A stretch of DNA of 63,763 nt, counting the filler, from Folioceros fuciformis (lineage: Eukaryota), in the NCBI GenBank assembly GCA_049999805.1. It is 3 parts of 3 records of this genome, joined end to end, with 100 filler letters (N's around TTAATTAATTAA, not from the genome) between each part and the next. Parts side by side here need not be neighbours in the genome. Positions count along the whole stretch, not along the records: positions 32,770 to 63,763 come from JBNGIO010006268.1; 2 more parts are not named here. One strand, written 5' to 3'. The notes below the pieces were generated by a model. It saw nothing but the letters and a program-made list of their open reading frames with translations. It did not search any database and was not told the DNA's origin. Positions 17,021 through 63,300 of the stretch are shown in pieces; positions within the stretch are counted from its first letter, which is position 1; each line of letters opens with the position of its first letter. The position numbers and the translations under genes are program-made.

Positions 17021-17120
17021 NNNNNNNNNNNNNNNNNNNNNNNNNNNNNNNNNNNNNNNNNNNNTTAATTAATTAANNNNNNNNNNNNNNNNNNNNNNNN
17101 NNNNNNNNNNNNNNNNNNNN
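17021..17120. other. Assembly gap with artificial six-frame-stop linker
   Basis: N runs flank TTAATTAATTAA. Confidence 0.95.
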
Positions 17121-28290: not shown

Positions 28291-29679
28291 TCATACCATG
28301 TAGATGACAACAAAGCAAGGGAGCACAGCCTTGGCATTGAAGACGAGGAGATCCCCCATGTTGGAGTAGGGGCCGACATCCGAGGCCACAGAATCGTATC
28401 CGGCAGGAGGGGAAGAGTGAGCATCAAGGGCGAGGGAGTCGGGGCCGGCAGCAGCCGTGTGCACTCTCCCAGCAATGACTCTGCACACCACCATGGCGCG
28501 CCGGGCCTTGCACACATCGTCGTCGTCGAACCCTGGCCAGTAGGCGATGGAGTCGTGAGCCTTGCCGCTGGTGGAGGTGGTCTGGATGCCTTTCCCCTCG
28601 TCCCTGTGCGAGGAGAAGCCCTGCCGGATGATCTGACACACGCTGCAGGAGGGCAGGAAGCAGAGGCTGGTGGAGCCGCTGTAGCCCAGGGAGCACATGA
28701 CGGTGGTGCCGTAGAATCGCAGGAGCTCGTTCCCGTCCGCCATGCACCGCGGATGCTTCTTTGGGAGCTTGTTGGCCCGCGCCTTCACCGCGTCCCGGAA
28801 CTCCTCGAACTTGGCGATGGTCCTCTGCGTGTTGTGCACCTTGAGGATGCGCTCGATCTTCCCGCACGGGATCTCCTTCTTTAGCCAGCTCGTCCTGAAG
28901 ATGATCTCCACCACGTTCCGCGACGAGTCGCCCGGATGGAGCTCCGTCACTGCACAATCGCACACGCACATTGCATTGGCATTGCATCTTCAGGAAAAGA
29001 GAAGCAAGCGCACTCCAATTACCCCATACAACTGTGGCCCGAGGCAAAGAGCAACTGGAAGCACTAATTTGGTACCAGCGTGGCGGATGATCTGGTGCTG
29101 CTCCAGCGCTTCCACCCGGTTGAAGAGCTGCCCACATTTCTGGCACCCGGGCTTGGGGGAGTCGCACGCCACGCCCGCCTCCCGCTCCAGCGCCTCGTAC
29201 CCCTGCCCCAGAGTGCAGTCGTAGCAGCCCGAGAATCTCCGCAGCGGCGTCCCCCTGCTCACGTAGCTGGAAGAGATAGGCGTCCCGCAGTAGGAGCTGA
29301 TGCCTTTTTCCCTCAGCAGTCCCCGCTCCCCGACCACGTCGTTGTCCACGCTGTCGAAGAATTCGCTCACGCTGTCCCGCGACACCGGGCTGCACGACGA
29401 GCTCTGCTTGTGCATCACCCTGGTGTTGCCGTGAATCACATCCTTGAGCGACCTGGCGCAGGCTCCCGAGCCAGGAGCCTTCCTGTCCACTTTTTCCCTC
29501 TCCCGCTCCCGCTCCCGGTCCCGCTCCCGGTCCTTCCCTTCCCTCTCCCGGTCCTTCCTTTCCCTCCCCCCTTTCTTTCCATTCTTGGATTTCCCACTTC
29601 CCGCCCGCGGCTCATGCACCTGCTCCAAGTCCGTCTTGCAAGACAGCGTCTTCTTCCATGTCTGCCATGGCGCCGGCAT
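28291..29679 (-). CDS. Plant C2H2 zinc-finger plus PARP/ADP-ribosyltransferase-like domain protein (420 aa, 2 exons)
   Basis: Exons 29679-29076 and 28949-28291 (GT-AG). WQTWKKTLSCK, LKDVIHGNTRV, CQKCGQLFNRVEALEQHQIIRHA|VTEL, KKHPRCMADGNELLRF, TTSTSGKAHD, VCRVIAGRV, LPCFVVIY. Confidence 0.9.
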
Positions 29680-32669: not shown

Positions 32670-32769
32670 NNNNNNNNNNNNNNNNNNNNNNNNNNNNNNN
32701 NNNNNNNNNNNNNTTAATTAATTAANNNNNNNNNNNNNNNNNNNNNNNNNNNNNNNNNNNNNNNNNNNN
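32670..32769. other. Assembly gap with artificial linker
   Basis: N runs flank TTAATTAATTAA. Confidence 0.95.
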
Positions 32770-37416: not shown

Positions 37417-39585
37417 ATGGCTTTGCGATTCTTCGGCAGTGCCGTCACCGGGATCAGCGCGGGGCTGGCGTTGCCGGGGCAGGTGGCGGAGGGGAAAGTG
37501 AAGAAGGCGGGGAATTGGGTGTGCACCGTTGCGCCCGCGGAGGGAGAGGTTGCGGAGCCGCAGCTGCCTAGCCAGAGCCATGCGCAGACCCCAAACGCTG
37601 TCGTGGAGGAGCGGCGGATTGCGGGGATTTCCATGATGCAGCAGCGGCCCAAGAATTCGCGGAGGTGGATTGTGCCGGGCTCGTGCGCCGGGCCCGACGG
37701 GCTCACGTCCCGCGTTGTGAAGAAGGAGGTGCAAGTGGATCCTGCTGTTGTGGATTTCTCCGTGGACCTGAGTCGGCTCAAGAATTCGCGCAAGTGGAAT
37801 GCTGCGCGGGCAGAGGCCAGTTCCGTCATTCGCAGCTCGGGGTGGCGGATGCACAAGACAATGGCCGCCCGGGCTGAGGCTGGGAACGGGAGTGGCGGGC
37901 TTACGTACAAGGCTGCCGGGGTGGATATCGATGCCGGGGCCGAGCTCGTACGGCGCATTGCTGCCATGACGCCGGGAATTGGTGGATTCGGGGGCCTCTA
38001 TCCGTTCGGTGAGTTTTGTTTCAATAGCGGCTGTGGCTTTCATGGGTTGTTGGTAGGCAGCGTTCTTTGTGGTGCTTCGAGGGTTTGGGTTTTGTGCGTG
38101 AGAGTGAGAAGTTTTGGGGGAGTGATGGAATGTGGGTTTGGTGGTTGACAGCCATCGCAGGCGTGGAAGAATGATGCAATGCGCTTGTGGGTTTTTTGTG
38201 GTTGACTGGAATTGAGTTTGGCTGTTGCAGGTGATTCTTACCTTGTTGCGGGAACTGACGGCGTGGGGACCAAACTGAAGCTGGCGTTCGAGACGGGTAT
38301 TCACGACACGATCGGAATCGATCTGGTGAGTGGTGAAGACGTGGGGGAAGTTTTACGGGGTTTGCAGGTGCTGGTGGGTCTGACGTCCTGTGCCTGCTGC
38401 TGTCCCGGCTTTGCTCGCAGGTTGCCATGAGTGTGAACGACATCGTGACCTCCGGGGCTCAGCCGCTCTTCTTCCTGGATTACTTTGCCACCAGCACTCT
38501 CGATGTGGATTTGGCGGAGAAGGTGATCCAGGGGATCGTGGAAGGATGCAGGATGTCCAACTGTGCTCTCCTCGGTGGAGAGGTAGGTGGTGCTGCCAGG
38601 TTGCACATCCCGTGGTGCGTTTCTGCTTGGGTTTGTTGTTTGCTCAGGAATGTGCTTACTTGGCCCGGTTTGCCTGCTTGCAGACTGCGGAAATGCCCGA
38701 TTTCTATGCTGAGGGCGAGTACGACCTCAGCGGCTTTGCTGTCGGCGCTGTGAAGAAGGACAGACTGATAGACGGAAGCAAGATTGTAGAAGGGGATGTC
38801 GTCATCGGGATGGCATCGAGTGGAGTTCACTCGAATGGATACTCTCTCGTTCGCAAGTAGGTTTTGGGTTGCTTCTGCCGGGATGGCTGTCTGCTGCTGC
38901 TGCTGCTGCCTCCCTAACTTGATTTCCGGGCGGATGGGCGACAGGATCGTTGAAAAGAGCGGAGCGTCGTTGAATGACGAGCTGCCCAACGGTGGTGGCA
39001 TAACAATTGGCCAGGCTCTGATGGTTCCAACTAGGATCTATGTCCCAGAGGTGGGTGTGATTTGCATCTCTTATCGCCTAATGTCATTCGGCGGGTTCGG
39101 GGCGACGACGAGGGGGTTTCTCTAATTCTCCAACCTCTGTTGGCAGGTCTTGAAAGCTGTTAACCTGGGTGGAGTGAAGGGCATTGCCCACATCACGGGG
39201 GGAGGATTTACGGAGAACATCCCTCGGATCTTTCCTGACGGTCTTGGTGCCCACGTCGAGCTTGGTCAGTGGAAAGTGCCCCCGATCTTCAACTGGCTTC
39301 AGAAGGTATGTCCAGTGGCACTCCATCCTCGATCATCGCCTTCCATGCCTCTACTTTCTACATGGTGCTGACGGCCACCATTTGTTTTGCCTTCTTCAGG
39401 CCGGTAATGTAAGCGAGAAGGAGATGTTTCGCACGTTCAACATGGGCATCGGGATGGTACTGATTGTGGATTCTCATGCCGGTCACCACATCTTGACTGG
39501 TGAAGCAGGTATTGGTAAAGCATACCGTATCGGCACTGTGAAGGAGGGCGACGGGGTCATGTTCAACAGCATGAAGAGCACGTGA
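37417..39585 (+). CDS. PUR5: Phosphoribosylformylglycinamidine cyclo-ligase (AIR synthetase, PurM), organellar precursor, 7 exons
   Basis: Exons 37417-38008, 38231-38325, 38421-38582, 38684-38856, 38945-39050, 39147-39305, 39400-39585. [60 protein letters not shown]. Confidence 0.97.
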
Positions 39586-44363: not shown

Positions 44364-46118
44364 GCGTTCCAGCGGTGGAAAGCTGAAACTCATCACCTTT
44401 CTAATTGAAAGCAGAGTCTGAAGGTAACAGTCTGCTGCCATCATGCGATGTCTCTGGATTCAACTCAGGAAAAATTTAACGCCGTGATTTTCTGTTACTT
44501 TAGGTGGGACATGGCGTTGTGGGGCTGCAGCCGCGAGATAAAGTTACCTTGCTCCTGCGGTTTGATACCTCGCACATGCGCCGCAACCGAGAAAAAACAA
44601 AAAAATCTTGGACGCTTCGCCCAGTTTGTATTCTACCATTCTAGTTCGGAACGGCGCTTGTTTCCTGGAAACTGATCAACAATTCCAAGATACGCTTAAG
44701 TGACATGCCGTCCTTAAGCTTGCCAAGGTCGTCCCCTTCGTTTCCGGATGCACAATGTACTAAGATGATGTTGAAAAGCGGTATTGACATGGTTCTCGTC
44801 TTCTTCAACAGGTTTATTGTTTGTTCTTGCACGTTGACTAGGCACCTGAAGTGTGAGTGCGGAACAATGCGCCTTTCTCATGGTGAAAAGTAGAAAAAGT
44901 GAAAGCTAAATTTATAGCTGGCCTCACGAGGTGTGTATGCTTGATGCTGTGTTGGGAAACAAGTCGTGTGTCCTTGGCATAAACTCCGAGGATCGATGAA
45001 GTTGTAATAGCCACTACTATTTTGAGATGAGTGGCAGTTTAAAATGCTATGGATAAAATCTTGAATATAAAAGGCTAGGTCTATGGATAAAATCTTGAAT
45101 ATAAAAGGCTAGTCCTAAGGCCTTTTTTTCCTCGTGAAAAAGAGAGTTAGATAAAACAGGTAGAATTCTGCTTGGAAAGTACATGAATTGAGTCGAGGTC
45201 CTATTGATAGTCATAGCACGTGAAAACAAAGGCTTGATAAGAGCACTAACCGTCCTACATCCTAATTACCTTCGCTTCATGGCCCAGCCATGGAAACCAG
45301 CCATGACATAGTTCTTCCTCTTAAAACCAGCCATGACCTAGTTCTTCCTCTTAAATTTGCGAGGAGAGGAGGCTTTGAGATTTTCTGCCGCGATTAGCAC
45401 CTGTTCCCAAATGCACCACGCTACTGCCTTGGTGGAAAGCAAGGCCCTCTCGCCGTATACGATTGCTGTCCAGTTATTCCATATGCCGAAAATGCAAGAG
45501 CTCCACACCAATCCCCACCATTAATTCGACACCAATGGGTGATTGGAAGCTAGATCTAGCCCGAAGAGGGCAGATTGTTCAGTTAGAATCGGATTGGCCA
45601 AAGGAAAGTGTTCAGTTAGAATCGGATTGGCCAAAGGAAAGAGCCCTTGTAGCCAGCCCTCCACCTCTCATCAGACCTCGCGAGCAAACTTGCAATGGAA
45701 GAATAATAAAATCTATACTACGGATCATACAACTTAAGTGCGGAGGCATTGGGAAAGTAGGCAAGACAAGATGTAAGAGATCATCAGCATAAAAGAGAAT
45801 TAATTAAGAAGGGTAGAGCATTGTGCTATATGCCCAAAAACGTAAGCGGTTATTAAACCGTCATAACTAAAATATAAAACTAACTATTTAACCTAGGGTA
45901 GAAGTCTTAACTTTACTCTAGGTTTTCTATACTCCCACTTAGTTTAGTATTTTAGGAGTACGAAATGGGCATTAAACTGAATGCATGTTTTTGTGTGAGT
46001 CATTATCAGTTTATGAACTCTTGCTAAACGTGAAGATAGTCTCATGCTTGTCAATCAATGTCCAACAACTCCTTACGCTCCATTGCCTTGCTCTCCACAG
46101 ATCACCATAAAAGCAACA

Positions 46119-46895
46119 ATGGCTACACTAAGTGCCACAAAACTCTTGTTGCTTGTGGTGATGTCTTCATCTTTGGTGCTTTTTGTCATTGGAGATCTTC
46201 AGTCGTTCAGTCGAGTTGCACACACTCTAGGATTTCGTGGCTTGAGATGGAAGACTCTATTCAAGGTCTCGAGTGTCTGGGTTGTGATCGCTTGCGGATA
46301 CCAGTCTGCCAAACGTCAGTCTTGTCTTCATGCAATGAACTGTCTGGACTCCAACATCGTGTCCTTTGAGTCTCCAACTGGTGCTCCTCTTCCTACAGAT
46401 AGCTCAAAAGGCAAGACTGCAAGGAGAATTCACAACTTTGACAACAAGGGAAATCCTAAACATGTGTTTGCTACTGCCTCAGTAGACTTTGAAAAAGTTG
46501 CTTGTAAGGAGACAGAGATGCAGTGCAAGCAAGCTTGTGTGATGGACATTGGTATAGACCCAAGCATGGAAGAATTCTTACGCTTCACAAAGGTACCTCT
46601 CCCTATGACTCTGAAGATGAGAAGTACATGGAGAAAGAGTAGGGACGGAAGCCTATGAAGAATCCCACAAAGAAGAAGGGTGAGGTAGTAAAGCCTAAGT
46701 CTCATACCACTGAGACTGGTCTATTGGTCACTTATAGATGTAAGTACCTAAACTCTATTTGGTGATATATTGCTCATATTCTAACTCTGATACTGCTGTA
46801 CAGCACTCACAGAAGAGTTTGCCAAATCCAACAAGACTCGAGAAGAGCTAATCAAACTTCTGAACAAGGATGGCAAGCTCCCACACAAGGATTAG
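46119..46895 (+). pseudogene. Antisense, apparently spliced membrane-protein gene inside Copia B
   Basis: AACAATGGC start; hydrophobic LLLLVVMSSSLVLFVIG; candidate introns 45995-46100 (5' UTR) and 46740-46803; frameshift and TAG near 46600-46642. Confidence 0.5.
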
Positions 46896-49572
46896 TCAAT
46901 GAGCAGTCCCCTTTGTAACAACAGGAGGAATTAGGCAAATACCAGCAGCTGATGTATGTTTTTCATGAGCTAGTTTAGATAAAGCCTTCGTGAGAAGGTC
47001 TGAAACATTGTCCTCAATTGGGACATAGGATACTGTTACATCTCCATTCTCTGCTGCATGTTATATAAAGTGATGACTTATCTCAATATACTTTGATCAG
47101 GCATGAAAAACAGGATTCTTCATAAGTGGTATAGCAGACTGATTATCACACCAAACAGGAGTTGGTCCAAGCTGTTGTAGGCGTACTCCCTTAAGAAAAC
47201 TTCAAATCCAAGTAATCTCCTTAGATGCTTGTGTCATAGCTGCATGCTCAGCTTCAGTTGAGGAGAGACTGACTGTAGGTATCTTCTTACTAGACCATGA
47301 CACTACAGAAGTGCCCATAAAAATACAATTAGCAGCTACACTTCGCCTTGTGTCAAGATCTCTTGCCCAGTCGGCATCACAGTATGCTGTGAGATCCAAA
47401 CCTTCCTTGCATTTCCGAAATCGTAGACCCTTCTTAGCAGTCCCCTTCAAATAATGGAATATGCGTTTTACAGCTGTCCCGTGTACGGGTCTAGGGTTCC
47501 CTAGGAATTGACTAACAACTCCCACCGCCCTGGTAATGTCCATCCTAGTCCAGCTAGATAAGTAAATAAGGGATCCCATAGCCTGCCTATAAGGGGTTCC
47601 AGACATAGCTTGTTTCTCTTCTAGGGTAACTCGACACTGTTCCAAGGACAGTTTCTCACCTACTGTCATAGGTGTAGAGACTGGTTTAGCATCTAACATA
47701 TTGAAACGCTCAAGTAGCTAATGAACAAAATGTTCCTGATGTATGTCAATTGTACCATCTACCCTATTGAAATGAAACTGAACACCTGAGGAAAAAGTGA
47801 GTTCCCCTAGATCAGCCATCTGCTCGGCTAAGATCCTTGTCCTTAAATGGCAAACTATGTGCCTTACTAAGTTGTCAGGCCTCACAAAAGGAAGTTGGGT
47901 CAAAAGTAAAATCAAGGGGTTCTCTGTATGTCTCACCTTTGACAAGAGTGGCTAATCGTTGGAAATTGACATGACCTAAACGACAATGCCATAGTTGGGT
48001 GAAAGGTGTACCGGTAATATGTGCATAGGGTCTGTTTGTAGAAAGAGTAGACACATCTAGTAAATAAAGATCATGGAAAGAATTTCCTTTGAAGAGGATC
48101 TGACCTGACCTTGAGACAATACAACCTTGTTGATCAAAGCACACTTGACAGTTGTGGTCTTGTATAAGCTTCATAATAGACATTAAGTTTTTGGTCATCA
48201 AAGGCACATAAAGGACATCAATAAGGATAAGTTGAGAAGAGTTTGGCAGGAGCATTGTTACTGAATTAGTTCCCTTGATGGAAAGTCCACTATCATCACC
48301 AAGTAAGACAAACTGTTTAGAATCATTGGCTGGAATGAAACTAGAGAAAGCAATCTTGTCAAAACAAATATAACTGGTGGCACCAGAACCTAAAAACCAA
48401 GAGGTAGGTTGAGTTTTAATAGTTGACAAACAGACCGCCATAATAGTTGGCTGCTTAGCCTTACTCACTGTGAGATTGCTTTCTTCTGGAGAAATGTTGC
48501 GTCGAGGCTCTCCTTGTTTATTCTTACGGCAATCACGTTTGTAGTGTCCAAGAATCTTACACCAATTGCACACAAAAGTTTTCTTGGTGATATTGGTGTT
48601 GAGCCGTTGAGGTTGTGTTGGAAAACCACGACCTCGTCCTCTGAAACCGCCTTGTCCTTTGGAGGAATAAAGTACTCTTGCACCACTATTTGAAATTGAA
48701 GATCGAGACTTATGAAAATTGCGTGAGCGTTCCTCAACCAGTATTGCTCCTATAACCTCTTCAAGTGTGACTGTAGGTAACTGACCTACTGCAGCTGCCT
48801 TAACTGCAATGTGTATCGTGGCATTCTGGCTACCAATAAAGTTGCTGTAGCTCTCAGGTAAAGAGGCAGGGAGGCTTATTGCTGATTGCACCTCTGTAAG
48901 TACAATGCCACAATACACTAGATCGCTCTATGCATCCTGTAATTGTTGATGTAGGCCTCCATATGCTCATTTTCCTTCATCCTCAAATTAAAGAAATCCC
49001 TGTATGCATGGACAAGAGATGCAAAGCTCTTGTCCTGATAAATGGACTCAAAAACCTTCCACACATTATTAGAAGTCTTGGCTCCAATGGTGTGGGGCAT
49101 CATGGTTTGATCTAAGGCAGCAATGAGTATAGATCGGGCACGCCTATCCTTTCGCTCCCAAGCTAGGATTTCGTCTGCCGATCTCGCAGGTACTGTGACC
49201 TTTGGTTTTGATCCATCTAGTATGGAAAATAGCTCATTCTCCTCAAAGATCTGAGTGAGTCTCATGTCCCAGATTTGATAGTCCGTTCCATTGAACCTAT
49301 CTTTATCTCAAAAATCTATTTTCAAAGGGACCAAGGCTGATGCTGGGACTGCAGGCGTTTGCGCTGCCATGCTTGATGAGTTGAAGATGGACTGAAGGAC
49401 TGACTGAAGTTGAAATTGTCTTGCTCTCTCTAAAAGATTGGAAGGAGAGAAATCCCATATTGGGTATGAGAAAGAATCAGCAAACAAGAAGGAGATGTCA
49501 TAAACATCATCATCATCTTCATGATCAGGTGCTTGCATAGAAGATAAGCAAGTCACAACATAGTGGAGGACT

Positions 49573-50022
49573 TTAAGCCAAAAGGAGAATGTCTGAGGAA
49601 AGATAATTTTCACATAAAATGTTCCATGAAAGAATTCCCTCGCAGAGCTTCTCGATGAGATCACTTGACTCCACACGTTTTCTCAAGCTGATGAGTTGAC
49701 GTGAAATGACAAGTTGTGTGTCTTTCTTTCGATGGAGAGTCGTGTCCTTCATAATATCGTAGCTTCCCCTGCCGTGATGATGTAACGTCGTATCCGACTT
49801 GTGAGGATGAGAATCGCAGCAACCGTCAGAGGAAGAAATTGATATTCTATCCCGATTTCTTCTGGGTGGATGAACGTCCCTTCGTGTCAACAGAGACTTT
49901 CGTCTGACTGATTGTGGGACGGTGTGCTCCTCGAATCTGCAATCAATATAGGATAAAGGAAATGAGTCTCTTTGTCTGTTGATTATCTTGGGAAACGGTG
50001 CTATGAATCTGCGCCTATGCAT
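49573..50022 (-). CDS. ORF0 of Copia B (149 aa, between PBS and gag)
   Basis: MHRRR.., R/S-rich, then VISRQLISLRKRVE, similar to element A ORF0. Confidence 0.5.
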   Translation of the reverse strand: MHRRRFIAPFPKIINRQRDSFPLSYIDCRFEEHTVPQSVRRKSLLTRRDVHPPRRNRDRISISSSDGCCDSHPHKSDTTLHHHGRGSYDIMKDTTLHRKKDTQLVISRQLISLRKRVESSDLIEKLCEGILSWNILCENYLSSDILLLA

Positions 50023-50969
50023 CTTGAAGCTTAGATGCCAGAATGCTCCACATCCAACGCACTTGATGAAGCAAGCTTTAATACCATAATAAAATCTATA
50101 CTACGGATCATACAACACAAGTGCGAGGCATTGGCAAAGTAGGCAAGACAAGATGCAAGAGATCATTAGCATAAAAGAGAATTAATTAAGAAGAGCAGAG
50201 CATTGTGCTATATACCCAAAAATGTAAGCGGTTATTAAACCATCATAACTAAAATACAAAACTAACTATTTAACCTAGAGTAGAAGTCTTAACTTTACTC
50301 AAGATTTTCTATAAAGAACATATGTTGGCTTTTGTGGAGGACCCCATTGCTGCATAGTCTACACACATCCTCCCCCGCCGCTACTAACAAACCATCCCAT
50401 CAGTCGCCATTAGACAAGCAAGCTTAAAAAAGGCACCAAACCATGACTTTGACCTTGGGGGGAATTCCAATAGCCGACCAAAGGAGATGGAGAGCTTCTT
50501 TTTGGCGCCGGACTAACAAGCTCCATTGAGAGCCCATCGATCGGCATTGCCTAGCTTTCTACGAGTGAACGAGCCAATGATAGATATCTGTCATTAGAAA
50601 GTTAAACAAGGACCGAGAGCTCCCTTGTTGGCCACCTAGCCGCTTCAGCCAACGCAAGAGGTCAGGTCACAAGGTCAGTTGCCAATTCTCCCCCAGATAG
50701 AGCCAATGCTGGGACGGAGGCTTGTTAGGATTTTGTAGAGCGGAGCTAGAGAAATCTCATAGTTGGCAAAAAGATAATTAATTACTCAGCAAAAAATTGT
50801 TTTTTAAATACAAGTGTAAATGACTCTTCATATATTGACGCTTCAAATTAGGGTTTACTAATAAACCAAGACTTAAATCTAAGCTACGTGGTTACCTATA
50901 CCAGGGATGGTATGCTAACACACCCCCTTAACCACGAGGCGACACGGTAACTGCGACAGTCCCAGAAGC

Positions 50970-51278
50970 ATGACGAGTTCGCTCCTGTTGATACTGGCAA
51001 GCTGCGCACTCGGGATCGCCATATTCCTCCTCGGACAGCATGTGCAGAAGGAGCTGCGAAGAGCTGCGCGCAGAATGCAAGCAAAGAGAGTATCATATGC
51101 GCACTGGAGAAAACACGACGCAGAACTGGAGATGACTCTGGCGGGATGGTAAATCAAGCTGTCGATAGCTGTGAGCATCGACCCAGAAGCTGGCCATACT
51201 CCATCAAGACGATTGAGAAGGCGCGAGCTGGTGATGAATAAGCTGGCAACGGCAGCGAAGATTCCATTGCCAGAGTAG
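50970..51278 (+). pseudogene. Antisense TM ORF of Copia C (102 codons, one in-frame TAA)
   Basis: MTSSLLLILASCALGIAIFLLG..ELEMTLAGW*IKLSIAVS..RRRELVMNKLATAAKI; resembles the element D antisense ORF on both sides of the stop. Confidence 0.6.
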
Positions 51279-51362
51279 CATCAGGAGCCGTGATTGGATG
51301 AGGGCGCTGAAGATTCATCCACGGACAGCTGATGCTCATCTTGGCGAGGTAGCTGTAAATCC

Positions 51363-54300
51363 CTAACCCGCCAGAGGAAGGATAGCCTGATAGTCTGTAA
51401 GGCCCATCTCTGCAAGAAAAAGGCTGTGCTTGATGCGAGGCAGCGCCTTTGTGAGTAGATCAGCTAGATTCTGATCTGTAGGGATATAAGCAATGTTGAC
51501 GATCTTCCTTTCAACAGAGTGGCGCACAAAATGGTGCTGAATCTCAATATGTTTCGTACGGGCGTGAAAACGAGGGTTCCCCACCAAGGCAATCGTCGAA
51601 CGATTGTCACAGAATACAGTAGTCGGCCGAACCTGAGGGAATTTGAGGCAAGCAAGGAAACTCCGTGCCCACTCTGCCTCCTTGGTAGCATCGGTAAGTG
51701 CCTTATACTCGGCTTCGGTCGAGGAAAGGGCAACTGAAACTTGCTTTTTAGTGCTCCAATTGACAATTGCCCCAGCAAGGGAGAAACAATATGCAGATAA
51801 GCTCCGACGAGTCTCAGGGTCCGAGGCCCAATCTGCGTCGGCATAAGCTTGCAACACAAAATCTGTATCAGGTGAATCACCACGGTAACAGAGTCCATAT
51901 GTTGATGTGCCCTTTAAGTATCTCAATATACGTTTGACCGCTCCCCAGTGATCCTTCCTAGGATTTTCGAGAAACTGAGAGACACAGCTCACAGCGTGCT
52001 GGATATCAAGTCGAGTCCAGCATGCTATGTAATTTAAGCAACCGACTGCATGTCGGTACGGTATATCAGCCATGTCCTGAGATTCCTCATCTGTCTTGGG
52101 AGACTGATCACAGGTAAGTCTCAAACCTACCACACCAGGTGTGCTTACAGGTTTCGCTTCGAACAAATTAAAACGTCTAAGAGTTTCATGCACATATTTG
52201 GTCTGATGCAGGATAAGGGTCTTGTGGTCACGATCCCGAAGCAGTTGAACTCCGAGAACAAAGGTAAGGACTCCGATATCCTTCATGTCATACTGTTTAT
52301 GTAGCATCTGCTTGACCCAGTCCAGAAGTTCCCGATCATCAGAGGCTAAGATGGCGTCATCCACATATAAAGCCAAAATAACCAAGTGTCCATTTTTGGA
52401 ATACATGTAGACATTAGAATCAGTGGGGTTTTGAACAAAACCGATCGACTTCAGGTAAGCATCGATTGTTTTATACCATTCACGAGCACTTTGTTTTAAA
52501 CCGTAAATGGTCTTCTTAAGTCTGCAGACCCAGGTTGGGTGAACAGGATCCACAAAACCTTCAGGTTGCTCCATGAAAATGTCTTCCTCTAATTCACCAT
52601 AGAGGAATGCAGTGGAAACATCCATCTGCTCAAGATCCCAGTCACGAGCAGCAGCTAAGGCAAGAATCATACGGATGGATTGTGTCTTGACTACAGGACT
52701 AAAGGTGTCGGTGTAATCCACACCAGCAACTTGTGAGAAACCACGTGCGACGAGCCTGGACTTATATCTGGCAATCTGGCCTTTGGCGTTTAATTTATGC
52801 TTAAACACCCATTTACAGCTGATAGCCTTGCGTCCAGCAGGTAAGGGGCAAAGTTCCCAAGTATCATTCTTGATGAGAGAATCATACTCGTCCTGTATAG
52901 AAGGTATCCACTTATTCTTATCTCGGCCTAATATTGCTTCTTGATAAGATCTGGGTTCTGTAGGGTGCTCCGTTGAAGAGGAGAAAACTGTAGGGAAGTG
53001 AGAAACCAACCGCGAGGATCTAGGGTTTCGAAAATCAATGGCCTCATATGGTTTTTCATGCCACTGATCCCTAGGGTTTCGAGTGCGACTAGGGTACCGT
53101 CGCTCTTCAGGAGCTGAGGGCTCATAATTTTGTACTGCAGGTTGAACAAGAGTTGGGTGTAATGCTTCATCATCATCAGAGGAGGCATCTACATCAGAAA
53201 TAACATTTTCCAAGCTATCCAGCTGATCAGCATCATGATCATGAGGTTCAGGGTGTGTTGCTTGAGGTTCTGTCTCTGCATAAGGTTCAGGCGGTTCAGG
53301 CTCAGCATCTTCTAACGGCATGTCAGAAACAGGAGACGGTGGCTGAGCAGGAACTGGTAAATCAGCCCCAGAATCAGGTGGAGTGCCACCCCCTGAACAT
53401 GAACCGTTATGAGTTCCACACCCTGAACCGTGAGCAGCACCACCTGAAGCAGGGAGCATATAGAAATCTTGAGGAAATTCAGAGACAGCAGTGTCGAAGT
53501 CATCAAAAGGATGCTCAGGGGATGCGGCAGCATCAGCAGATTGGTGAGTAGCTGGATAGGTAAGCTCCTTAAAGGTAACACTGCGGGCAAACGAGCAGCT
53601 GCGAGAAGAAGGGTCATAAAGTTTGTAGGCTTTAGTTTCTTCGCCATAACCGATAAAAATAAGAGGCCGAGCACGATCCTCTAACTTTTTACGTTGCTTG
53701 GCAGGAACATAAGCATAGGCCGGGGAGCCAAAGACACGAAGATGAAGGAGGCTTGGCCGACGGTGCCAAACTAACTCAAAAGGTGTCCTTCCCGCAACAG
53801 AACTGGTAAGCAACCGATTTAGTATGTAAGTAGCAGTGACCACGGCTTCAGCCCAGTAAGCCTTGTGAAGACCCAACCACTGTAGCATGCTGTGGGTCAT
53901 GCCTAAAAGAGTCTGATTGCGTCGTTCAGATACGCCGTTTTGTTGCTGTGTATAAGGGACAGCAAGCTGGCGTAATATGCCTTGATCAGCCAAATATTGA
54001 TCAAAAGCAGGGTTTACAAATTCGGATCCATTGTCGGACCGCAAGCACCGAAGTAACCGACCAGTCTGTCTTTGAACCATGGTAAGCCATTCTTGGAAAA
54101 CTCCAAAGGTGTCTGATTTCCGCTTGAGAGGGTATGTCCAACTATACCTACTATAATCGTCTGTGAGAGTAAGGTAATAATTGGAACCGCCAAGAGAAGA
54201 AACATGTATCTTACCTGAAATGTCTATATGCACCAGGTCAAGAACATTAGAGGTTCTAAAAGCGACAGTGGTTGGAAAAGGCAGTTCCTTTTGTTTGGCA

Positions 54301-56387
54301 ATAACACAAGAATCGCATAAGGGAAGATCCTTAAAGCACTTGGACAAAGGCTCCCAGTAACAGTCTGTATTTGACATTATGATCAGGTTGTTTTTATTAG
54401 CATGACCTAGGCGTGCATGCCAATGTTGTGCTAAAGCTGATTGAGTTTGTGAGGCCACAAAGGTACTTCAGGCTGGTGAGCAGCTTATATCCAGCTGATA
54501 CAAGTCATCCACCAAGATACCCTTGGCGATAGGAGCAAGTTGATCTTTATATTTAAGGAGGCAGCAATCAGCTGCAAAGGTGAGATCAAACCTGCGGGAT
54601 TTCATCAGCTGACTGACTGATAAAAGATGCTTTGCCATATTAGGAACATAAAGAACATGTTCCAGCTGCAAGGCAGAGCCATCCTTAAGGCGGAAAGTAC
54701 ATGTGCTTGAACCGAGAATCTTTAGTCCTGTACGGGTAATCTCATCACCAAGTAAAACCTTTTCTGTGGTATGGGCAGGAACATAATTGCTAAGTAATTT
54801 CCTGTTGTGGCAAATGTGCGAAGTCGCGCCAGAATCCAAATACCAGGAGTCAGGCTCACATGCAGAGATATGGTGACTCACTGTCATAACAACGGGCTGC
54901 TTGCCAGAAGATGATGCTTGGTGAGACCGGTCTTTGGAAACCGTATGTGCCTCAGCCACCTTATGTGACTTCTCGGCCTTTTTCGGTTCTCCATTCTTTT
55001 TCTTCTTACATTCCCGTTCCCAGTGTCCTTGAATTCCACACCAATTACATGAACCAGCTCTCTTTCCTTGAACTGGCTTGACAACGCCACTTCCTGGAAG
55101 TGTGTTCTTTGCCTTGCCCTGAAACTTACTCTTGTTTGAGTACAGTACTTTATCAATTTTCGTCTTGCGTGTAGTAGAGTGATGAACTTTGCTTTGCTCT
55201 TCTTGGAGTAAAGCTCCAACTACATCTGTAAAGGAGATGTTGGGCGCTAAGCCTAATGCTGCTGCATGCTGAGCAGCATTTAGGATAGCACCATAACTGG
55301 AGACGAAAGTTGGATAACTTGGTGGGAGGCTGCTGAGGAGCTGTGCAACTGCGTTAACGTCATCAAGCTGTGTGCCTAGAGAGATCAGCTGTGATCTCAA
55401 GAGCCGAAACTTGGCAACGAAGGTACCAACTTTCTCACCTTCCTTCATACGTAGGGAGAATAATTCGGTACGTACAGTGCACAGCGTGTGAATATTTCTG
55501 ACATCGTAAATTTGTGCCAGTTGCTTCCAGATGTCCTCTGCCTTAAGCAGGTAGGCTACGTCTGGAACAAGAGCCTCATCTAATCCACTGATGAGTAGGG
55601 CACGCGCAACGCTGTTGGCGTTCGCCCATCTGTCCTTCTCATCCTGTGTGGCATTAGGTGGAGGTTCTGCATACTGTCCTGTAACAACCAACCAAACGTG
55701 TCTGGCTTCCAGGGCCGCGCGCATCCGGACACTCCAAACTGGGTATTTGGTGCCATTAAACCTGTCACGTTCCTTGAATTCAATAGTGTTAGTAGGCTGA
55801 TAAAGATGTGGTTGTGCAGCGTGCGGACCAGGTACAGATGGGTTTGAAGGAGGAACTGGTGGCCCTGGAGGATTCGGAGGTGGTGTGGGGTTTAAAGGAG
55901 GAGGAGGTGGAATTGGTGGGGCTTGTGCGAAACCACCTAACCCACCATACCCACCATAATTCCCTCCGAAACCCGTGTACCAGTTTGGGATTCCGAGACC
56001 TCCAGGTGCGGTATAAATCCCAGCCAAAGGATTCGGGAAGAGCCCACCGCTGCCAACAGAAGGAGTCGTGAAGAATCCTGGTACTGTCATGCCGCTAGGA
56101 TTGTGGGCGATTCCACCAGCCGCTGCGGAGACACCTCCCGATGCAGCAACTCTGCCAGGTAAGGCGGCTTCGCCTGAGACACCCCTCCTGGGTGTTGAGG
56201 TTCCCTGTGTCTGAGTTGCGACCCCAGCAGAATGTGCGCCGGAACCAATTGCTGGTGAATTGCTGTGACTCGTGCTGGGTGCAGTGCTTGCATTGACACC
56301 CGTTTGGGCCGCAGAGGATGCGAAGCCATCTGCGTCGCCAGAGTCACCTTCATCACCGGAGCCGAACTGGATTCTGCCATCACTCAT
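51363..56387 (-). CDS. Gag-Pol polyprotein of Copia C, interrupted by a single in-frame TGA (54468-54470)
   Basis: CNWCGIQGHWEREC, WYLDSGAT, WHARLGH, DDE integrase (LRSDNGSEF, QQNGVSERRN), RT (MDVSTAFL, LYVDD), RNase H (YADADWA, TKHIE). The two listed ORFs share one frame: ..SPA*STFVASQ.. Confidence 0.95.
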
Positions 56388-56633
56388 TCTGCTGTACAGT
56401 ATCGCGAACTGGAACTGTAGACCTGCAGGTGAAAATCACGCACCACGAGACCTTGCGGTTACAGGTATGAACCAGTTAGGTTCCACACCCGCGTGCCGAT
56501 TGGAATTGTTGAGTGTCTTCCACGCTGTAAGTTGCAAGTCTGTCGATTTGATCGATCGCGTCGCTTCAAATCTCACATTCCTTGTAATGGCATCTTGCGA
56601 TTGATGCAGAGATGCGCGCGTGGGCAAGACGAA

Positions 56634-57062
56634 TCAGAGAAATGCAGATCTTCTCCGACGTCTTCGAGTGGCCTTTCGATTCATCAATGTCTCGCGAAAT
56701 GCTAGGCTGACGGCTTCGTCCAAATCAGTTTCTGATTGTAAAACACTTGGATCGTTTCCCACAAGAAGATCCTCCAGCAGAGAGTAAATTCTCTCACACC
56801 TGTCAATCACATTGCGTAGTTGAATCTGTCGAGGAGGCCTCTGCGAACGAGAGCTCTCTGCCTACGAGGATCTCCGCTGGGTAAAATCCTGATCACAATC
56901 AGACGATTGTCTGCAATTCCGAGAGTGATTTGAAGCCGTTTTCAAGCAAGGTCTGACTATCCTGAAACTGTCTGCAACTGGGCTTCGTTCCCAACACGCG
57001 TTGGTCGCAGGTCTGACATTTCTTGAAAACCGGGCGCTACTCTCAAAATCACGACAAGGCAT
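56634..57062 (-). pseudogene. ORF0 of Copia C, one in-frame TAG
   Basis: MPCRDF..RRSS*AESSRSQRPPRQIQLRNVIDRCERIYSLLEDLL..RKATRRRRRRSAFL*. Confidence 0.45.
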
Positions 57063-60000
57063 TTTTGCCAGGATTTCTTTCTCCGCTCATTTCAGAAATT
57101 GAAGCAGATGTATTCACTTTAGACTGTATACTGCGCTATATAGGAAGGAAAAAATGCTGACACACGATCCAAAAACCATAAGACTTATGACAGATGGATC
57201 ATGTAGTCCTCATTTTTTCTTCCTATCTGTATGCATTTTTGTCTATAGTAGATATGCTAATTTCAGATGATTGCAGCGGAAAGATGTCTCTAAGCTAGAC
57301 ATTAAAATACATATCTGGGAGAAAAAATTGAAACCATAAAATCCATAAGCCACCAAAATTGTGATTAATGGATATTGTGGTTCTCTTTTTTTTTTTTTTT
57401 TTTTTGACATATGTATATATATTTGTAGACTAGCATCTCTACAAATATGATCAATCTATTATCTAGAATATGGCTCTGATACCATGTTAGGATTTTGTAG
57501 AGCGGAGCTAGAGAAATCTCATAGTTGGCAAAAAGATAATTAATTACTCAGCAAAAAACTGTTTTTTAAATACAAGTGTAAATGACTCTTCATATATTGA
57601 CGCTTCAAATTAGGGTTTACTAATAAACCAAGACTTAAATCTAAGCTACGTGGTTACCTATACCAGGGATGGTATGCTAACAAGGCTTGCGTTTGGGGGC
57701 TAAGAGAGCACTTTGTTCATCTTGGGTAAGCCATCGTCTTGCTCGTGGAGCTCTTGTCAAGACTGTGATAGGGCGTAGAGAAAGTCAAAGGAGCTGACTT
57801 TCTCTCCATCCTTGCTTCTACAAGAGTCCCTCTACTGAAGCCACCTTAAAGGATTGTGGGCCACCGTCGCCTTCTTGCATGGAACAAGGAATGCCTGGTC
57901 GAACTCCAATGGGGCCTCATGGTCATCGATGTCTGAGACTCCCCGCCAACGATCAATGCTATAAGGCCCCCAAGCCTCCTTGGCCACCTCCAGCTTATGA
58001 AGCAAGTCCTGCTTTATCACCACATTCATCCCCTCCTGCACCCAGGCATACATTAGACGAATGTGATGTACAAGGATACCAAAGTTCTCCCAGACCTCCT
58101 CCACCTCTCTCCAGCAGCCCTCAGCGCTGTTCCATAAGAGCCCAAGTTGATACACTCCTTGGCGACCTGCAGCCCCAAAGATTTGCAAATGAAAAACACT
58201 CGAAACGAACTCTAGTGTCCACAGCCTCCGAAAACGTTGTAGAGGGATACCTAAGACATCGTCCATGCTTGAAGGAGGGGATGGCATCATCAATGACTTC
58301 ACTTCCAGGTAGCTGCTCCAAATGGATCTAAATAGTGGGGAGCACTCCATGGTGTTTAATAGTGGTTTATCTGCCAAGATATTGTTGAATGACCTTCTTC
58401 CTTGTGGAACCGCTTGTGTGCCATTTAGGAGCTATCTAAGAAGACTTTTCCATGGGTAGCGAGTTGGGTCCCATGATTTAACCACCCACTGCGCATGTAA
58501 GGCCTTCATCTTGCTGGAGGGGTCAACTAGTCTCAGGCCCCTACCCATCAATGTTGGATTACATGAGTCCACGCCACTTTATGAGGTGACGTTACCAACT
58601 CTAGTGACCTATCCCATAAGAAGCTGCCAATCACCTGTTGCAGCTTCTTAATTTCCATCCTGTTTGGAGCGCATAAAAAAAAGGTAATACCATTGGGATG
58701 CCGACAAGATATGGTTAGTCACAACCAGCCTACCAGCTAAGTTAAGATCTAGGAGCTTTAAACTTTTGGCTTTCCGAATAAACCTGAGGCATACAAATTT
58801 GCCAATTGCTTCATTTTCCTCCAATTCCTGGAACGATAGACCCAAATACTTATGGGATGATCCAGCCTAGACTCTGCTAATATGCTTGATGCATTCAGGA
58901 ACTTCCCCCTCCAAGTTAGTACACATCATTCGGGTCTTGCTCCAATTTACCTTGCATCCAAAGAGAAGCCCAAAGATCTGTACCTGATGAAGAAGAGCTT
59001 GTAGAGACGTCTCTGTAGCAGAGAATAAAAGGAGAGTATCATCCGCAAAGGCTGATATCCATAGTTTGGACCCATATGAGAGGATCAGACCTTCAATCTC
59101 TGGATCTTGTTTAACAGCCCTTAGAAAAGAATCAATGACGATGATGAATAGGAAGCGTGCCAACGGGCAGCCTTGACGCACGAAGCGGGAAATGTCAAAC
59201 CTCTCCGTGAAAGCCCCATTGACAGCTACCTTGGCTCCTGCGTCTTCGCATAAGATGCCCACCCATCGGCAAAAGTTGTTTCCAAAACCGAAGCTCCGGA
59301 GGCACCTCCACAAAAAAGGCCATTCCATAGAGTCGAGCGCCTTGTAGAAGTCCAATGAGATAAGACAGCAAGCTCACCCAAGGACATGGCCTTAGACTTG
59401 GCTTCTAGCAATAGCAGAAGATTATCAAGAATGCATCTATTCTTTATGAAGCCCCTTTGATCCTCCTATCCATTCATCCAAGAAAGGTTTGGCCCTATTA
59501 GCAAGCACCTTTGCCATAACTTTGTAAGTTGTGGTAAGCAAAGTGATAGGCCGCCAATTGGAGATTGAAAGGCTTGCACCTTGCTTAAGTAATAGGGAGA
59601 TGACTCACAAGTTGAACCACTTGCCCATAGTACCTTCCTCCCTCATTAAATGCACAACCTCCGTAAAAGTGGTTCCAAAAATTCCCAGCCCCAGAGAAGG
59701 AATTCTACCAAGATGCCATCATGTCCTGGCGACTTATTCCTTGGCAAGGAATTTAAGGCTTGATCAACCTCCTCTGCAGATATTGGTCTATCAAGCATCA
59801 TGTGTTGCACCTCAGACACTTTGGCCGGGAGATGGTTGCAAGTTGAGGTCCAAATCTGCTCCCACCCTATAGCTTTGCCAAAGTTGGAGACGATTTAGGG
59901 TTTAGGGCGACTCTTGAATCACACCATTAGCGTTCTGGAGAGTGGGAATTCTGGCCTTGTGCTTGTTAACAGATACCTTGTCAAAAAAGAACTTAGAAGG

Positions 60001-60605
60001 GTAGTCACCTTCTCTTACCCACTTGACCTTGGCCCGCTTGAACTACCCGTGTGCTCTGTCTTCCTCAATCTTGGCTAACGAGCATTGGGCATCCAGGTGA
60101 AGGCTTTCATCCCCACTGTTCAGGCCTTGTTCTTCTCCTAAGCGTTGCAGGTGACTCAACTCCTCCCTTAGAAACTCTTCCCTTTTCCTTTGCTCCTTCT
60201 CCCGCTGAGCCCTATATCTCCTTAGGAAACTCGTTGCTTGACTATTTGCTTGCATAAATTTGAGCACTGCAGGATCCTCTCCCTTCTTTGCTTCTTGCCA
60301 AAGATGCTTAATCTGGTCATCGACTCCTTCTTCTGCTAGCAAAGACGTGTTCACTCGGGACGAAGTTCAACCTGCTTAGTTTATGTCTACCTAAGCTAAG
60401 AGCCAAGCAGAGGTGCAAGCTGATTGGGTGATGGTCCGATTGGATGGTGCCCGCCACTATGTTGTAAGCTAGCACTGATGGCAACCAACTCGTGGGAATG
60501 TAGAACGTGTCAAGCCTTCTAGCCACTGGAGCCACGACTTGCAGATTCGACCAGCTAAACAAGAGTGAGTCATTCTAGCGATGAGCTAGTAGCGCTAGCC
60601 AGGGG

Positions 60606-63300
60606 TGTAAATTTACGGGCATGAACAATGCTCGTTATAGAGTGCGACAGCCAAGATGACTAGAAGCACAAGACTCATAAGTACAAAAATGAATAAGTGA
60701 ATAATTACATCTCAAATGTCTGTTTATATACTAAACCCTAAATAGTCCATGTAGATACATTTGTCCAACCCTAACATAACTAACTTAAGCTTGTACCAGG
60801 GTTAACATAACTTTACACTCCCTCTTAAGCTAGACAAGCGTAAGTAGGCACATGCCAGACTTCACGCCCACCAAACGAACTTGATCGCACCCGGATGCAG
60901 CTGAACACTGTGAGCCAGCGATGGTGATCCAACTGGACACTGCCCTGGCTTATATTTTGGCATCCCTCTTCGTAATCACACGTCTTGCAATTGCTGTTGT
61001 GATGAAGATGAGAAGCGGGCAGCTGTATGTTGGGAAGGCAGGCAGTGGCAGCAATCGACGAGCGAAGGGAAGGATAGAGCGAAGACCTGAGCCTAGCTCT
61101 CAATCCAGTGTCCATGAGCCGGAAGTTGTGATAGATGGGGACGAGCAACGCTTGTGTTGTGGCCAGTATCTCAACATCAGAGGATATAGAGTTGAGCTGA
61201 ACATCACCCTCAGCTGGAAATGGCCAACACAGAGTGTAGAAGATGAGGCAGGTGAATCGCGGCCATGGACGGAGGAGGAAATCGAGCGAGAGATTGGCTT
61301 GCTCACACGCCTCAGGGAGGCTGTGAAACTCATGGGTCAACTCAAGCAAGATGGAGAATACGGGATGTGACCCATCAAGCAGCCAGGCGAGAAGGCAAAC
61401 GTTGAGCTTCATCCGCCTGCTGTCGATAATCTGAACTGTGCTGAACATACTGTAACTGCGCCCTAACCAATTTGTTGTTGCGGGGCTGTAGTTCCCATAA
61501 CTTGGAGGTTAGGAGGCAATTGATTTATCATCCATATCATCAAGCACGGGTCCATAAAACTGGGTCCCTTTTAGGTATCTGAATACTCGTTTAGTAGCTA
61601 CCCAGTGAGCTCGACCAGGCTTATCTAGAAATTGTGACCGAGTACTGACAGAGTACTGTATATCTGGTCAAGTCTAGTTTGCAACAAACAGGAGACTGCC
61701 TACTACATGGTGATAGGGAATATCTACCATCTTATTTTGTTCCTCAGCAGACTGAGGACACTGTAAGCTTGTGAGCTTGACTCCTAGGGCAAATGGAGTA
61801 GATGTAGGACGTGCTTCATCAAGCTTGAACTTGTGCAACAGTTGTTGGATGTACTTGTATTGGTGTATGAACAGGAGACCTTCAAATCTGACCCGAAGCA
61901 GCTGGATACCCAAGCAGAATTTCAATTCACCTATGTCTTTCATCTCAAATTTGTTGCTCAACATTGTCTTTACTTCTGCTAACAAGATCTGACTATTTGT
62001 CGCCAGAATCACATCGTCCACATATAAGGCGAGCACAACATAATCATTTCCTCTCGACAGTCTGTAGACATTACTGTCAGCAGCACTTTGAATGAAAGAA
62101 ACATTCAGCAAATATTTGTGTATAGTCAGATACCACACTCTACCACTTTGTTTCAAGCCATAAATCGTTTTAAGTAGCTTGAGAACTTTCTTAGGATGCT
62201 TAAGATCCTCATAACCCTCTGGTTGAGTCATGTAGAGATCTTTGTCAAGGGATCCATACAAGAATGTCGTACAGACATCCATCTGATGCAAGTCCAGATC
62301 ATGCTCGGCTGCAACTGCCAAAATCACCCTGATGGATTGTGATCTAACTACTGGGGAAAATGTTTCCTGATAATCCAGGCCTTCAACCTGAGTGAAACCT
62401 CTCACTACCAAGCGTGCCTTGTAGCGAGCTATCTCTCCTTTTGCATTCAGTTTGACTTTGAATACCCATTTGCATGATATGGGTTTTCGATCAGGAGGAA
62501 GATCAACCAATCTCCAGGTTTGATTCTTTATCAATGAATTGTACTCATCGTCAAGTGCAAGTTTCCACTTGTCACGTTCTGCACTTGAATATGCTTTTTT
62601 GAGTGATTGTGGTTCCAGATGTAATGTCATAGACATTGAATAAACAACCTCAGCATATGCAGTTGTGAAATCAATTGATGTGTATCGTGGTTCTCTCCAT
62701 TGATCCGGAGGAGGAGGATGTCAGGAGGAGCGTCTAAGTGGTTCAGGTTCAGGTTCCATTGCCACTTGCACGGGTGCAAGAGCATCATCAGCCATTTCTG
62801 CAAGATCTTCGTTTCCATATAGGAAATCATAGCCCAGATTTTGATCACCGTCAGGTGCATCATTAGCTCTCTCTAAGCCCAACCCTTCATTTTCAGTAAT
62901 TGGAAACTCATCAGCAGGTGGGTCAAAATCATTTCTTGCTAGTGGCATTTGCTGTACAGGCTGCACAGGTAGTTGATTCTACGCAGGTTGATCTGAAGTG
63001 GAGAAAACCATATCAAAGTCTTCTTCTGGAAACCATGATGCTGAAGTTTCACCTTCAATGAGGTTAGTAGCGTTCATCTCCAAACTAGCCCAAATCCACC
63101 AGCCAGATCTAGCTCTAGTCCGTTGGTTTGGATAGGCAGCTTTAATCCCCATGATAAAAAGCTTGTACAGGGGAGTCCATAATTCACCATCATCTTCTGG
63201 TTCCTCCACTTGCACAAGCAACCAATTTTTGTCCACCAAGTCTATCACCTGCATTTGCGCAAATATACGTTTCAACACCATTGTGTCATCGTACCTGTAA
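60606..63300 (-). mobile_element. Truncated Ty1/Copia element D (3' LTR 60606-60817, antisense ORF, RT)
   Basis: TGTAAA..TTTACA LTR; PPT AAGAGGGAG; RT 61674-62636 (KARLVVRGF, LYVDD); RNase H deleted at about 61550. No integrase or 5' LTR recognised in the window. Confidence 0.88.
60921..61370 (+). CDS. Intact antisense membrane-anchored ORF of Copia D (149 aa)
   Basis: TM ALAYILASLFVITRLAIAVVM, basic linker, LNIRGYRVELNITLS, C-terminal helix; candidate 5' UTR intron GTAAGT..TGCAG at 60840-60900. Confidence 0.65.
   Translation: MVIQLDTALAYILASLFVITRLAIAVVMKMRSGQLYVGKAGSGSNRRAKGRIERRPEPSSQSSVHEPEVVIDGDEQRLCCGQYLNIRGYRVELNITLSWKWPTQSVEDEAGESRPWTEEEIEREIGLLTRLREAVKLMGQLKQDGEYGM

Follow-up and report, generated by a model that had tools for sequence, protein, structure and literature searches.

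Open reading frames (ORFs) that run antisense to gag–pol between pol and the 3′ long terminal repeat (LTR) are established in plant Ty3/gypsy retrotransposons, with Grande gene23, RIRE2 and Retand TRP28 as examples, and their function is given as unknown in the relevant parts of two reports (PMC7264820 and PMC11963269). We analysed a 63,763-nt stretch of DNA from Folioceros fuciformis (assembly GCA_049999805.1; three parts joined end to end), hereafter called the window, whose last 18 kb is occupied by three Ty1/copia elements, B, C and D, all on the minus strand. Each has a plus-strand ORF (ORFs B, C and D), opposite to gag–pol, in the stretch from the end of pol to the 3′ LTR; in D, this ORF follows a truncated pol. 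In their position, their antisense strand and their orphan, heterogeneous sequences, the three ORFs resemble the gypsy aORF-3R/eORF-3′R class as it is presented in those parts of the two reports (PMC7264820 and PMC11963269). Our tentative reading is that each is an extra antisense ORF specific to its element that would encode a small membrane-anchored or secreted protein, the three not being demonstrably homologous, although we would stop short of calling this reading probable.

Several properties set these elements apart from the gypsy ones. In the descriptions of Tat/Retand elements on which we draw, the spacers measure 2.9–6.6 kb and the ORFs are mostly longer than 600 bp, many of them with a Transposase_28 domain and nuclear localisation. 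In contrast, the elements described here are Copia, their spacers measure 0.43–1 kb, and their ORFs have 60–204 codons, a hydrophobic N-terminus and no Pfam domain; Transposase_28 (PF04195) was not matched by any of the three in a Pfam scan at E ≤ 1.

As a rule, the extra ORFs found in LTR elements are orphan and heterogeneous, and Copia elements are structurally uniform, with extra ORFs chiefly in the form of the sense eORF-3′F of SIRE, according to the sections of the REXdb survey cited here (Neumann et al. 2019; PMC6317226). By the same sections, only ORFs of at least 250 codons were counted (PMC6317226), so that ORFs of 60, 149 and 204 codons would have been missed. The SIRE eORF-3′F, as outlined there, is likewise a highly divergent extra ORF downstream of pol in Copia, but it lies on the sense strand, whereas B, C and D have theirs on the antisense strand. 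The literature searched yielded no account of Copia elements with small antisense ORFs of a membrane type.

A further point of comparison is provided by the sORF2/FAST-like small transmembrane proteins of the Drosophila MDG1 group, which, in the portion of the preprint considered here (bioRxiv 10.1101/2025.03.14.642691), act in cell-to-cell transfer, escape homology searches and were found with a transmembrane filter. As portrayed in that portion, sORF2 is a short accessory protein of an LTR element whose single transmembrane helix precedes a basic patch, and ORFs C and D match it by hydropathy and in architecture only. It comes from insect Gypsy-type elements, its helix is central with an N-terminal ectodomain before it, and the filter included an N-myristoylation motif. 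Unlike sORF2, ORFs C and D have just 3 and 7 residues, respectively, ahead of the helix and carry Thr or Val, not Gly, at position 2.

Antisense coding near the 3′ end is likewise seen in HTLV-1 (HBZ) and HIV-1 (the antisense protein, ASP), where it proceeds from an antisense promoter in the 3′ LTR. The HIV-1 protein is hydrophobic and HBZ is a nuclear bZIP protein; both systems belong to vertebrate retroviruses and are likened to the present one by description, not by sequence. HBZ and the antisense promoters in the HTLV 3′ LTR are mentioned in the parts of PMC7264820 and PMC11963269 used here.

Antisense ORFs beside the 3′ LTR in three Copia elements

The three ORFs were located as follows.

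46044–46658, plus strand: ORF B, 204 codons, in antisense orientation in the space between pol (ending at about 46905) and the polypurine tract
50970–51152, plus strand: ORF C, 60 codons, stop codon TAA at 51150–51152; hydrophobic segment at residues 4–22, then 9 Lys/Arg in 28 residues
60921–61370, plus strand: ORF D, 149 codons, intact; hydrophobic segment at residues 8–28, then 9 Lys/Arg in 28 residues

Each ORF begins 50–190 nt inside the polypurine tract of its element. An earlier, sequence-only reading of the window had reported ORFs opposite to pol near the 3′ LTRs of C and D, and both are present as plus-strand ORFs with an ATG start, 50 nt from the 3′ LTR edge in C (50970) and 104 nt from the inferred LTR edge (60817) in D (60921). 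The extent given for ORF D was accurate; that given for ORF C (50970–51278, about 100 codons) runs through the stop codon at 51150–51152. The same TAA was found in a read-derived contig from run X1, a run that may be the assembly's own sample. The hydrophobic N-terminus followed by a basic stretch was borne out in both, the strongly hydrophobic 19-mers scoring 2.55 (C) and 2.32 (D) on the Kyte–Doolittle (KD) hydropathy scale, which was used here in place of a dedicated transmembrane predictor. In ORF B, an internal Met codon at 46119 (context ACAATGGC) opens a signal-peptide-like segment.

Element C (50723–57682, minus strand) is a complete Ty1/copia insertion with intact gag and pol. It has all hallmarks of this group, namely a TG..CA LTR pair, a 5-bp target duplication, a tRNA-Met primer binding site and a polypurine tract, as well as the gag–protease–integrase–reverse transcriptase (RT)–RNase H order with integrase ahead of RT. 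Its LTRs (50723–50920 and 57485–57682) are 99% identical over 198 nt. Pfam domains recognised in the element were Retrotran_gag_2 and Pol_BBD and, within pol, rve (residues 48–142) and RVT_2 (residues 504–747). Pol reaches its normal C-terminus and is followed by a 432-nt spacer.

50718–50722 and 57683–57687: target duplication of element C, AGGCT, 5 bp
50723–50920, minus strand: 3′ LTR, 198 nt, TG..CA ends
50921–50933, minus strand: polypurine tract, sense GGTTAAGGGGGTG; TAA at 50930–50928 in the pol frame
51153–51278, plus strand: read-through extension of ORF C in the sequence-only reading, past the stop and outside the ORF, 42 residues
51363–54377, minus strand: pol, 1004 aa, with integrase, SH3-like domain, RVT_2 and C-terminal RNase H region
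54468–56387, minus strand: gag–protease ORF, 639 aa
57473–57484, minus strand: primer binding site, complementary to the 3′ end of tRNA-iMet
57485–57682, minus strand: 5′ LTR

Element B, a third Copia element in the window that the sequence-only reading had not drawn on for this proposal, was inspected as a prediction, and its layout agrees with those of C and D. The spacer between its pol and polypurine tract is about 960 nt long.

45743–50313, minus strand: element B, a Copia with an internal deletion that retains gag and, of pol, just the C-terminal portion
45743–45931 and 50125–50313, minus strand: LTRs of element B, 189 nt, 94% identical
45932–45944, minus strand: polypurine tract of element B

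Element D is a minus-strand Copia remnant that extends past the end of the window, and RVT_2 is its sole recognised domain. Its 3′ LTR was placed from two features, a terminal inverted repeat and the likeness of its polypurine tract to that of C. The GTAAGT...AG motif of a candidate intron, pointed out in the sequence-only reading, is present.

60606–60817, minus strand: inferred 3′ LTR of element D, terminal inverted repeat TGTAAATTT...AACTTTACA; 5′ LTR beyond the window
60818–60830, minus strand: polypurine tract, sense GCTTAAGAGGGAG; TAA at 60827–60825 closes the sense open frame
60825–61448, minus strand: sense ORF, 207 codons within a 227-codon stop-free run; pol frame, codon-aligned with ORF D
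60840–60900, plus strand: candidate 5′ untranslated region intron motif, GTAAGT at 60840 and AG at 60899–60900
61551–63002, minus strand: pol remnant, RT, matching residues 336–828 of the element C pol (polC); contains stop codons, with no RNase H after it

In all three elements, a TAA in the pol frame lies just before the G-rich core of the polypurine tract (45939–45941 in B, 50928–50930 in C and 60825–60827 in D), and all three plus-strand ORFs are codon-aligned to pol. The elements share polypurine-tract and LTR-terminus motifs and are mutually closest in pol, with 51–53% identity compared with 47% or less to 23 metagenome loci; in a tree built on 141 pol residues, they form an unresolved polytomy and not a supported clade. 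Among metagenome relatives, 12 of 21 have the pol stop, polypurine tract and LTR in direct succession without a spacer, the start of the LTR being confirmed by LTR pairs in three loci (L004, L006 and L011). Since these relatives end pol at that TAA, the spacers of C (432 nt) and B (about 960 nt) behave like in-frame insertions before an ancestral stop.

ORF length and hydrophobic start compared with chance

ORF lengths were compared with 3000 dinucleotide shuffles of each spacer. The 204 codons of ORF B were not reached in any of the 3000 shuffles and the 149 codons of ORF D in 0.2%. ORFs that had both 60 or more codons and a hydrophobic start, defined as an N-terminal 19-mer with KD ≥ 2.2, appeared in none of the shuffles of C or D and in 0.23% of those of B. 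Such a start was found in 5 of the 157 ORFs of at least 60 aa in the window; among 288 ORFs of 50 aa or more from 26 metagenome Copia loci, 2 had one. Hydrophobic stop-free 19-mers in any frame numbered 30 in 127.5 kb-strands (0.235 per kb-strand), and the chance of at least one per spacer was about 0.10, 0.16 and 0.21 for the three spacers. The hydrophobic-start antisense pattern of B, C and D looks like more than chance.

In each element, strong hydrophobicity is confined to a single one of the three plus frames, with T at the second codon position in 58–68% of codons. Whether T-richness produces the hydrophobic segments was considered: it partly does so in B and D (T content 0.37–0.50), but not in C (0.20–0.27). 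In every one of the elements, amino-acid composition scored better for the plus frame (+0.02 to +0.05) than for the sense frame aligned to it (0.00 to −0.05); in leave-one-out controls of this test, the sign was correct for 8 of the 10 real frames and for as many of the 10 mirror frames.

ORF B makes the strongest coding case among the three. Across its span, the plus frame has no stop (it is open for 213 codons), and the codon-aligned sense frame has 8 stops in 204 codons. Because the sense frame is closed at the random rate while the plus frame is open, the plus frame is the preserved one in B. Tandem repeats are absent from the ORFs except for one 8-bp unit present twice in ORF B (46198–46213). 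By length, ORF C makes the weakest coding case. The coding case of ORF D is ambiguous, since the sense frame is open there too.

The ORFs of C and D compared with each other

The sequence-only reading had proposed an antisense membrane-protein gene conserved between C and D. A conserved gene shared by these two elements is not supported: no significant protein or nucleotide similarity was found between them, ORF C contains the stop described above, and neither ORF has a family or a credible homologue. The Smith–Waterman score of the ORF pair was 36 against 26.4 ± 4.6 for shuffled sequences and was reached by 4.95% of 2000 shuffles. When the 36 frame pairs of the C and D spacers were compared, scores ranged from 22 to 40, and three nonsense pairs (37, 39 and 40) ranked above the ORF C–ORF D pair, which came fourth. 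The spacers also lack significant similarity at the nucleotide level. The two motif alignments described as ungapped have 4 identities in 15 positions and 4 in 17, lie at differing offsets (29 and 39), and one of them crosses the ORF C stop.

Nor do the two ORFs occupy equivalent places. C has a complete pol followed by a spacer, whereas D lacks RNase H: its similarity to pol goes no further than the RT/RNase H boundary (about 61551), with about 720 nt of unmatched sequence thereafter. The sense frame of D below 61550 was considered as a degenerate RNase H on account of collinear motifs seen by eye, and this was rejected. In searches with the C-terminus of polC as a phmmer query and with a profile of polC and 17 metagenome relatives, D was matched only as far as YLKGT.. 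(model positions 9–64), and the D sense stretch matched neither the RNase H profile nor any Pfam family. The blastn similarity of D to C ends at 61564, which also argues against an RNase H relic. What survives of the original proposal is the broader idea of an antisense accessory ORF beside the 3′ LTR, which was not refuted and was in one respect strengthened, by the layout and ORF length of element B; the architecture recurs in three related Copia families and is statistically unusual.

Searches for relatives

ORF D was searched exhaustively with HMMER against 1.84 billion representatives. Its single match was P0001, a 1344-aa repeat protein, with an E value of 6.6e-4 that was summed from six matches of 25–30% identity; we read it as chance. 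A protein atlas gave no usable match for ORF B, and the best scores for ORF D were 0.84. Single-sequence AlphaFold2 models were poor, with a mean predicted local distance difference test score (pLDDT) of 50.5 for ORF D and 43.5 for ORF B. According to the tools' own notes, null results of homology, atlas and model searches do not prove a gene unreal.

Metagenome relatives comprised 26 loci, 33–48% identical to polC. Sixteen of them were examined downstream of pol, and the other 10 were dropped because they had no downstream sequence or no pol C-terminus. When the three ORFs were compared by tblastn with the window and the 26 loci, no match fell under E = 0.35, and no relatives were found in the viral-contig or genome-contig collections.

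Two of the metagenome loci, L003 (4952–5365) and L017 (1799–2026), share an antisense ORF on the minus strand of the loci that starts MEQSPQLDRFADSGK and has no hydrophobic start. They are identical across the 141-aa pol stretch of the tree. In both, the LTR begins about 10 nt past the pol stop, which places this ORF within the LTRs.

Explanations for the antisense ORFs

In the reading that we tentatively favour, the antisense ORFs between pol and the 3′ LTR would be extra ORFs specific to each of three related, distinct Ty1/copia families. The N-terminus of each would serve as a signal anchor or signal peptide, followed in C and D by a polybasic patch. A plus-strand transcript would start in or near the 3′ LTR, and its product would insert into the membrane with the basic tail in the cytosol, as in small viral membrane proteins, and would serve the element as an accessory factor; movement and anti-silencing are candidate roles put forward in the sequence-only reading. 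Either divergence past recognition or separate origins would account for the lack of demonstrable homology among the three proteins. Somewhat unlikely, in our estimate, is the stronger proposal that a Ty1/copia lineage carries a fast-evolving antisense gene beside the polypurine tract, encoding a very small signal-anchored protein that is a counterpart of small viral membrane proteins; with similar doubt, we suggest that such a gene, having a short N-terminus, one helix and a polybasic tail, might be invisible to homology searches and fall under the 250-codon threshold of the survey.

A number of results weigh against these ORFs being genes of the elements. No Pfam family was found for ORFs B, C or D at E ≤ 1, and word-index searches with ORF D (among near lengths), the D sense ORF (longer lengths) and ORF B returned no homologue. 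The protein-atlas recognition scores (1783 and 1942) lay below 2300, a value reached by 91% of known-family proteins. An antisense ORF with a hydrophobic start after pol was present in none of the 16 metagenome Copia relatives, in which the top score was 1.22, and no pair among ORFs B, C and D was significantly similar (shuffle fractions 0.05, 0.08 and 0.21). The 60 codons of ORF C were matched in 23% of shuffles. Codon usage, trained on the gag–pol of C, was neutral for C (−0.04) and D (+0.03) and positive only for B (+0.26). In D, the 0.7-kb stretch is open on both strands, and the sense pol-frame run (227 codons, reached in 2 of 3000 shuffles) exceeds the plus-frame run (161 codons, 0.5% of shuffles); the two strands were never open together for more than 150 codons in 3000 shuffles. 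This sense frame closes at the TAA fused to the polypurine tract, the canonical pol stop, and since ORF D is codon-aligned to it, ORF D may be its mirror frame. Lastly, the choice of C and D was made by eye, which renders their joint improbability post hoc.

Much of this evidence would fit the main rival explanation, which we regard as quite possible, if still on the doubtful side, and in which C and D contain no antisense gene. ORF C would then be a chance ORF and ORF D the mirror frame of a sense coding stretch in the pol frame or a recent relic; hydrophobic N-termini would result from xTx codons complementing hydrophilic xAx codons, and the recurrence would be a coincidence aided by post hoc selection. 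The chance-level similarity of C and D, the unremarkable length of ORF C, the codon alignment of all three plus ORFs to pol, and the stop-free sense frame of D, which runs to the polypurine-fused TAA in the layout of 12 of the 21 relatives, all point in this direction, as do the lack of homologues, of a confident fold and of such ORFs in the relatives, and the existence of other double-open stretches in the window (for example, 57832–58350). However, element B presents the reverse of a mirror-frame relic, with its plus frame open and its sense frame closed, and the sense pol frame of C has 5 stops within the 144-codon spacer, leaving nothing coding to mirror. Hydrophobic-start ORFs, moreover, are rare in the controls and yet occur in three of three spacers, and the D sense stretch itself has no RNase H profile or Pfam match.

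Descent of the ORFs of C and D, and also of B, from one ancestral antisense membrane-protein gene that kept its architecture while its sequence diverged is a special case of the favoured reading, not an addition to it, and seems improbable. C and D are alike in ORF position, orientation, pol phase and the order of short N-terminus, hydrophobic helix and polybasic patch, and the close pol relationship and the common polypurine-tract and LTR-terminus motifs of B, C and D would suit common descent; but there is no significant similarity, the lengths of 60, 149 and 204 codons differ, the tree gives a polytomy of B, C and D with no supported clade, and ORF D sits at the expected place of RNase H and not in a C-type spacer. 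The shared ILAS tetrapeptide falls within Leu/Ile/Ala-rich segments and is no evidence by itself. We give only a slim chance to the idea that the spacers are captured or overprinted foreign sequence with no role in the element, such as reversed 5′ portions of host genes encoding secreted or membrane proteins. That LTR elements capture genes is documented in the relevant part of PMC7264820, most relatives lack a spacer, and three mutually unrelated ORFs would fit separate acquisitions. Random capture, however, is not expected to leave a complete ATG-to-stop ORF in the same place and orientation in three families, and no host or other homologue of ORF B or ORF D was found in the collections searched.

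Antisense extra ORFs are an accepted yet unexplained feature of some plant Gypsy lineages, and Copia is described as almost wholly polyprotein-coding. If the favoured reading of element-specific antisense ORFs is true, the coding repertoire of Copia has been under-counted, and small membrane proteins, recently demonstrated to drive the spread of insect Gypsy-type elements between cells, may be something that retrotransposons have invented repeatedly; a transmembrane filter would then be a practical screen for such ORFs. If the ORFs are not real, they call for caution, since mirror frames and hydropathic complementarity can yield convincing "membrane proteins".

Copies of the elements in sequencing reads

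Two DNA runs of the same organism contain element C. The element is low-copy, and no diverged copies of its spacer were found among the read contigs; because the spacer was covered by essentially one contig, it offers no copy population for a test. That contig differs at 2 positions in 765 nt, one of which causes a Leu6Pro change in ORF C and neither of which lies at the stop. A relative of D at about 6× depth shows at least 80% identity only at the polypurine tract, at 60936–61029 (the hydrophobic segment) and from 61262 on. Run X4, guessed to be RNA, gave no alignments on the spacers and is uninformative for expression.

The differences between run X3 and window positions 50921–61560 were nearly all C>T (602) and G>A (645). 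This pattern fits a bisulfite-converted library, which could give the methylation states of the elements.

Other features of the window

Just outside the 5′ LTR of element C, the stretch 57832–58350 is open on both strands (172 codons on the minus strand and 150 on the plus strand). Its read depth of about 120–180, compared with about 8–12 for unique sequence, suggests that it probably belongs to another repeat family. A fragment of a long interspersed nuclear element (LINE)-type RT (RVT_1, E = 1.9e-15) lies at 58867–59328.

The window contains five runs of N with 186 bases in total, those with listed coordinates being 11320–11329, 17021–17120 and 32670–32769. A Copia gag fragment at 17122–17715 (minus strand), 46% identical to the gag of C, is flanked by a pair of N runs, and no pol was found for it. 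Host-gene-like exons occur at 13062–15062, 28291–28971 and 37417–38148; they include an exonuclease-like motif (FDIETTGF), a PARP-like domain with a third-codon-position GC content (GC3) of 0.84 and an AIR-synthase-like stretch, and GC3 varies from 0.44 to 0.84 between genes.

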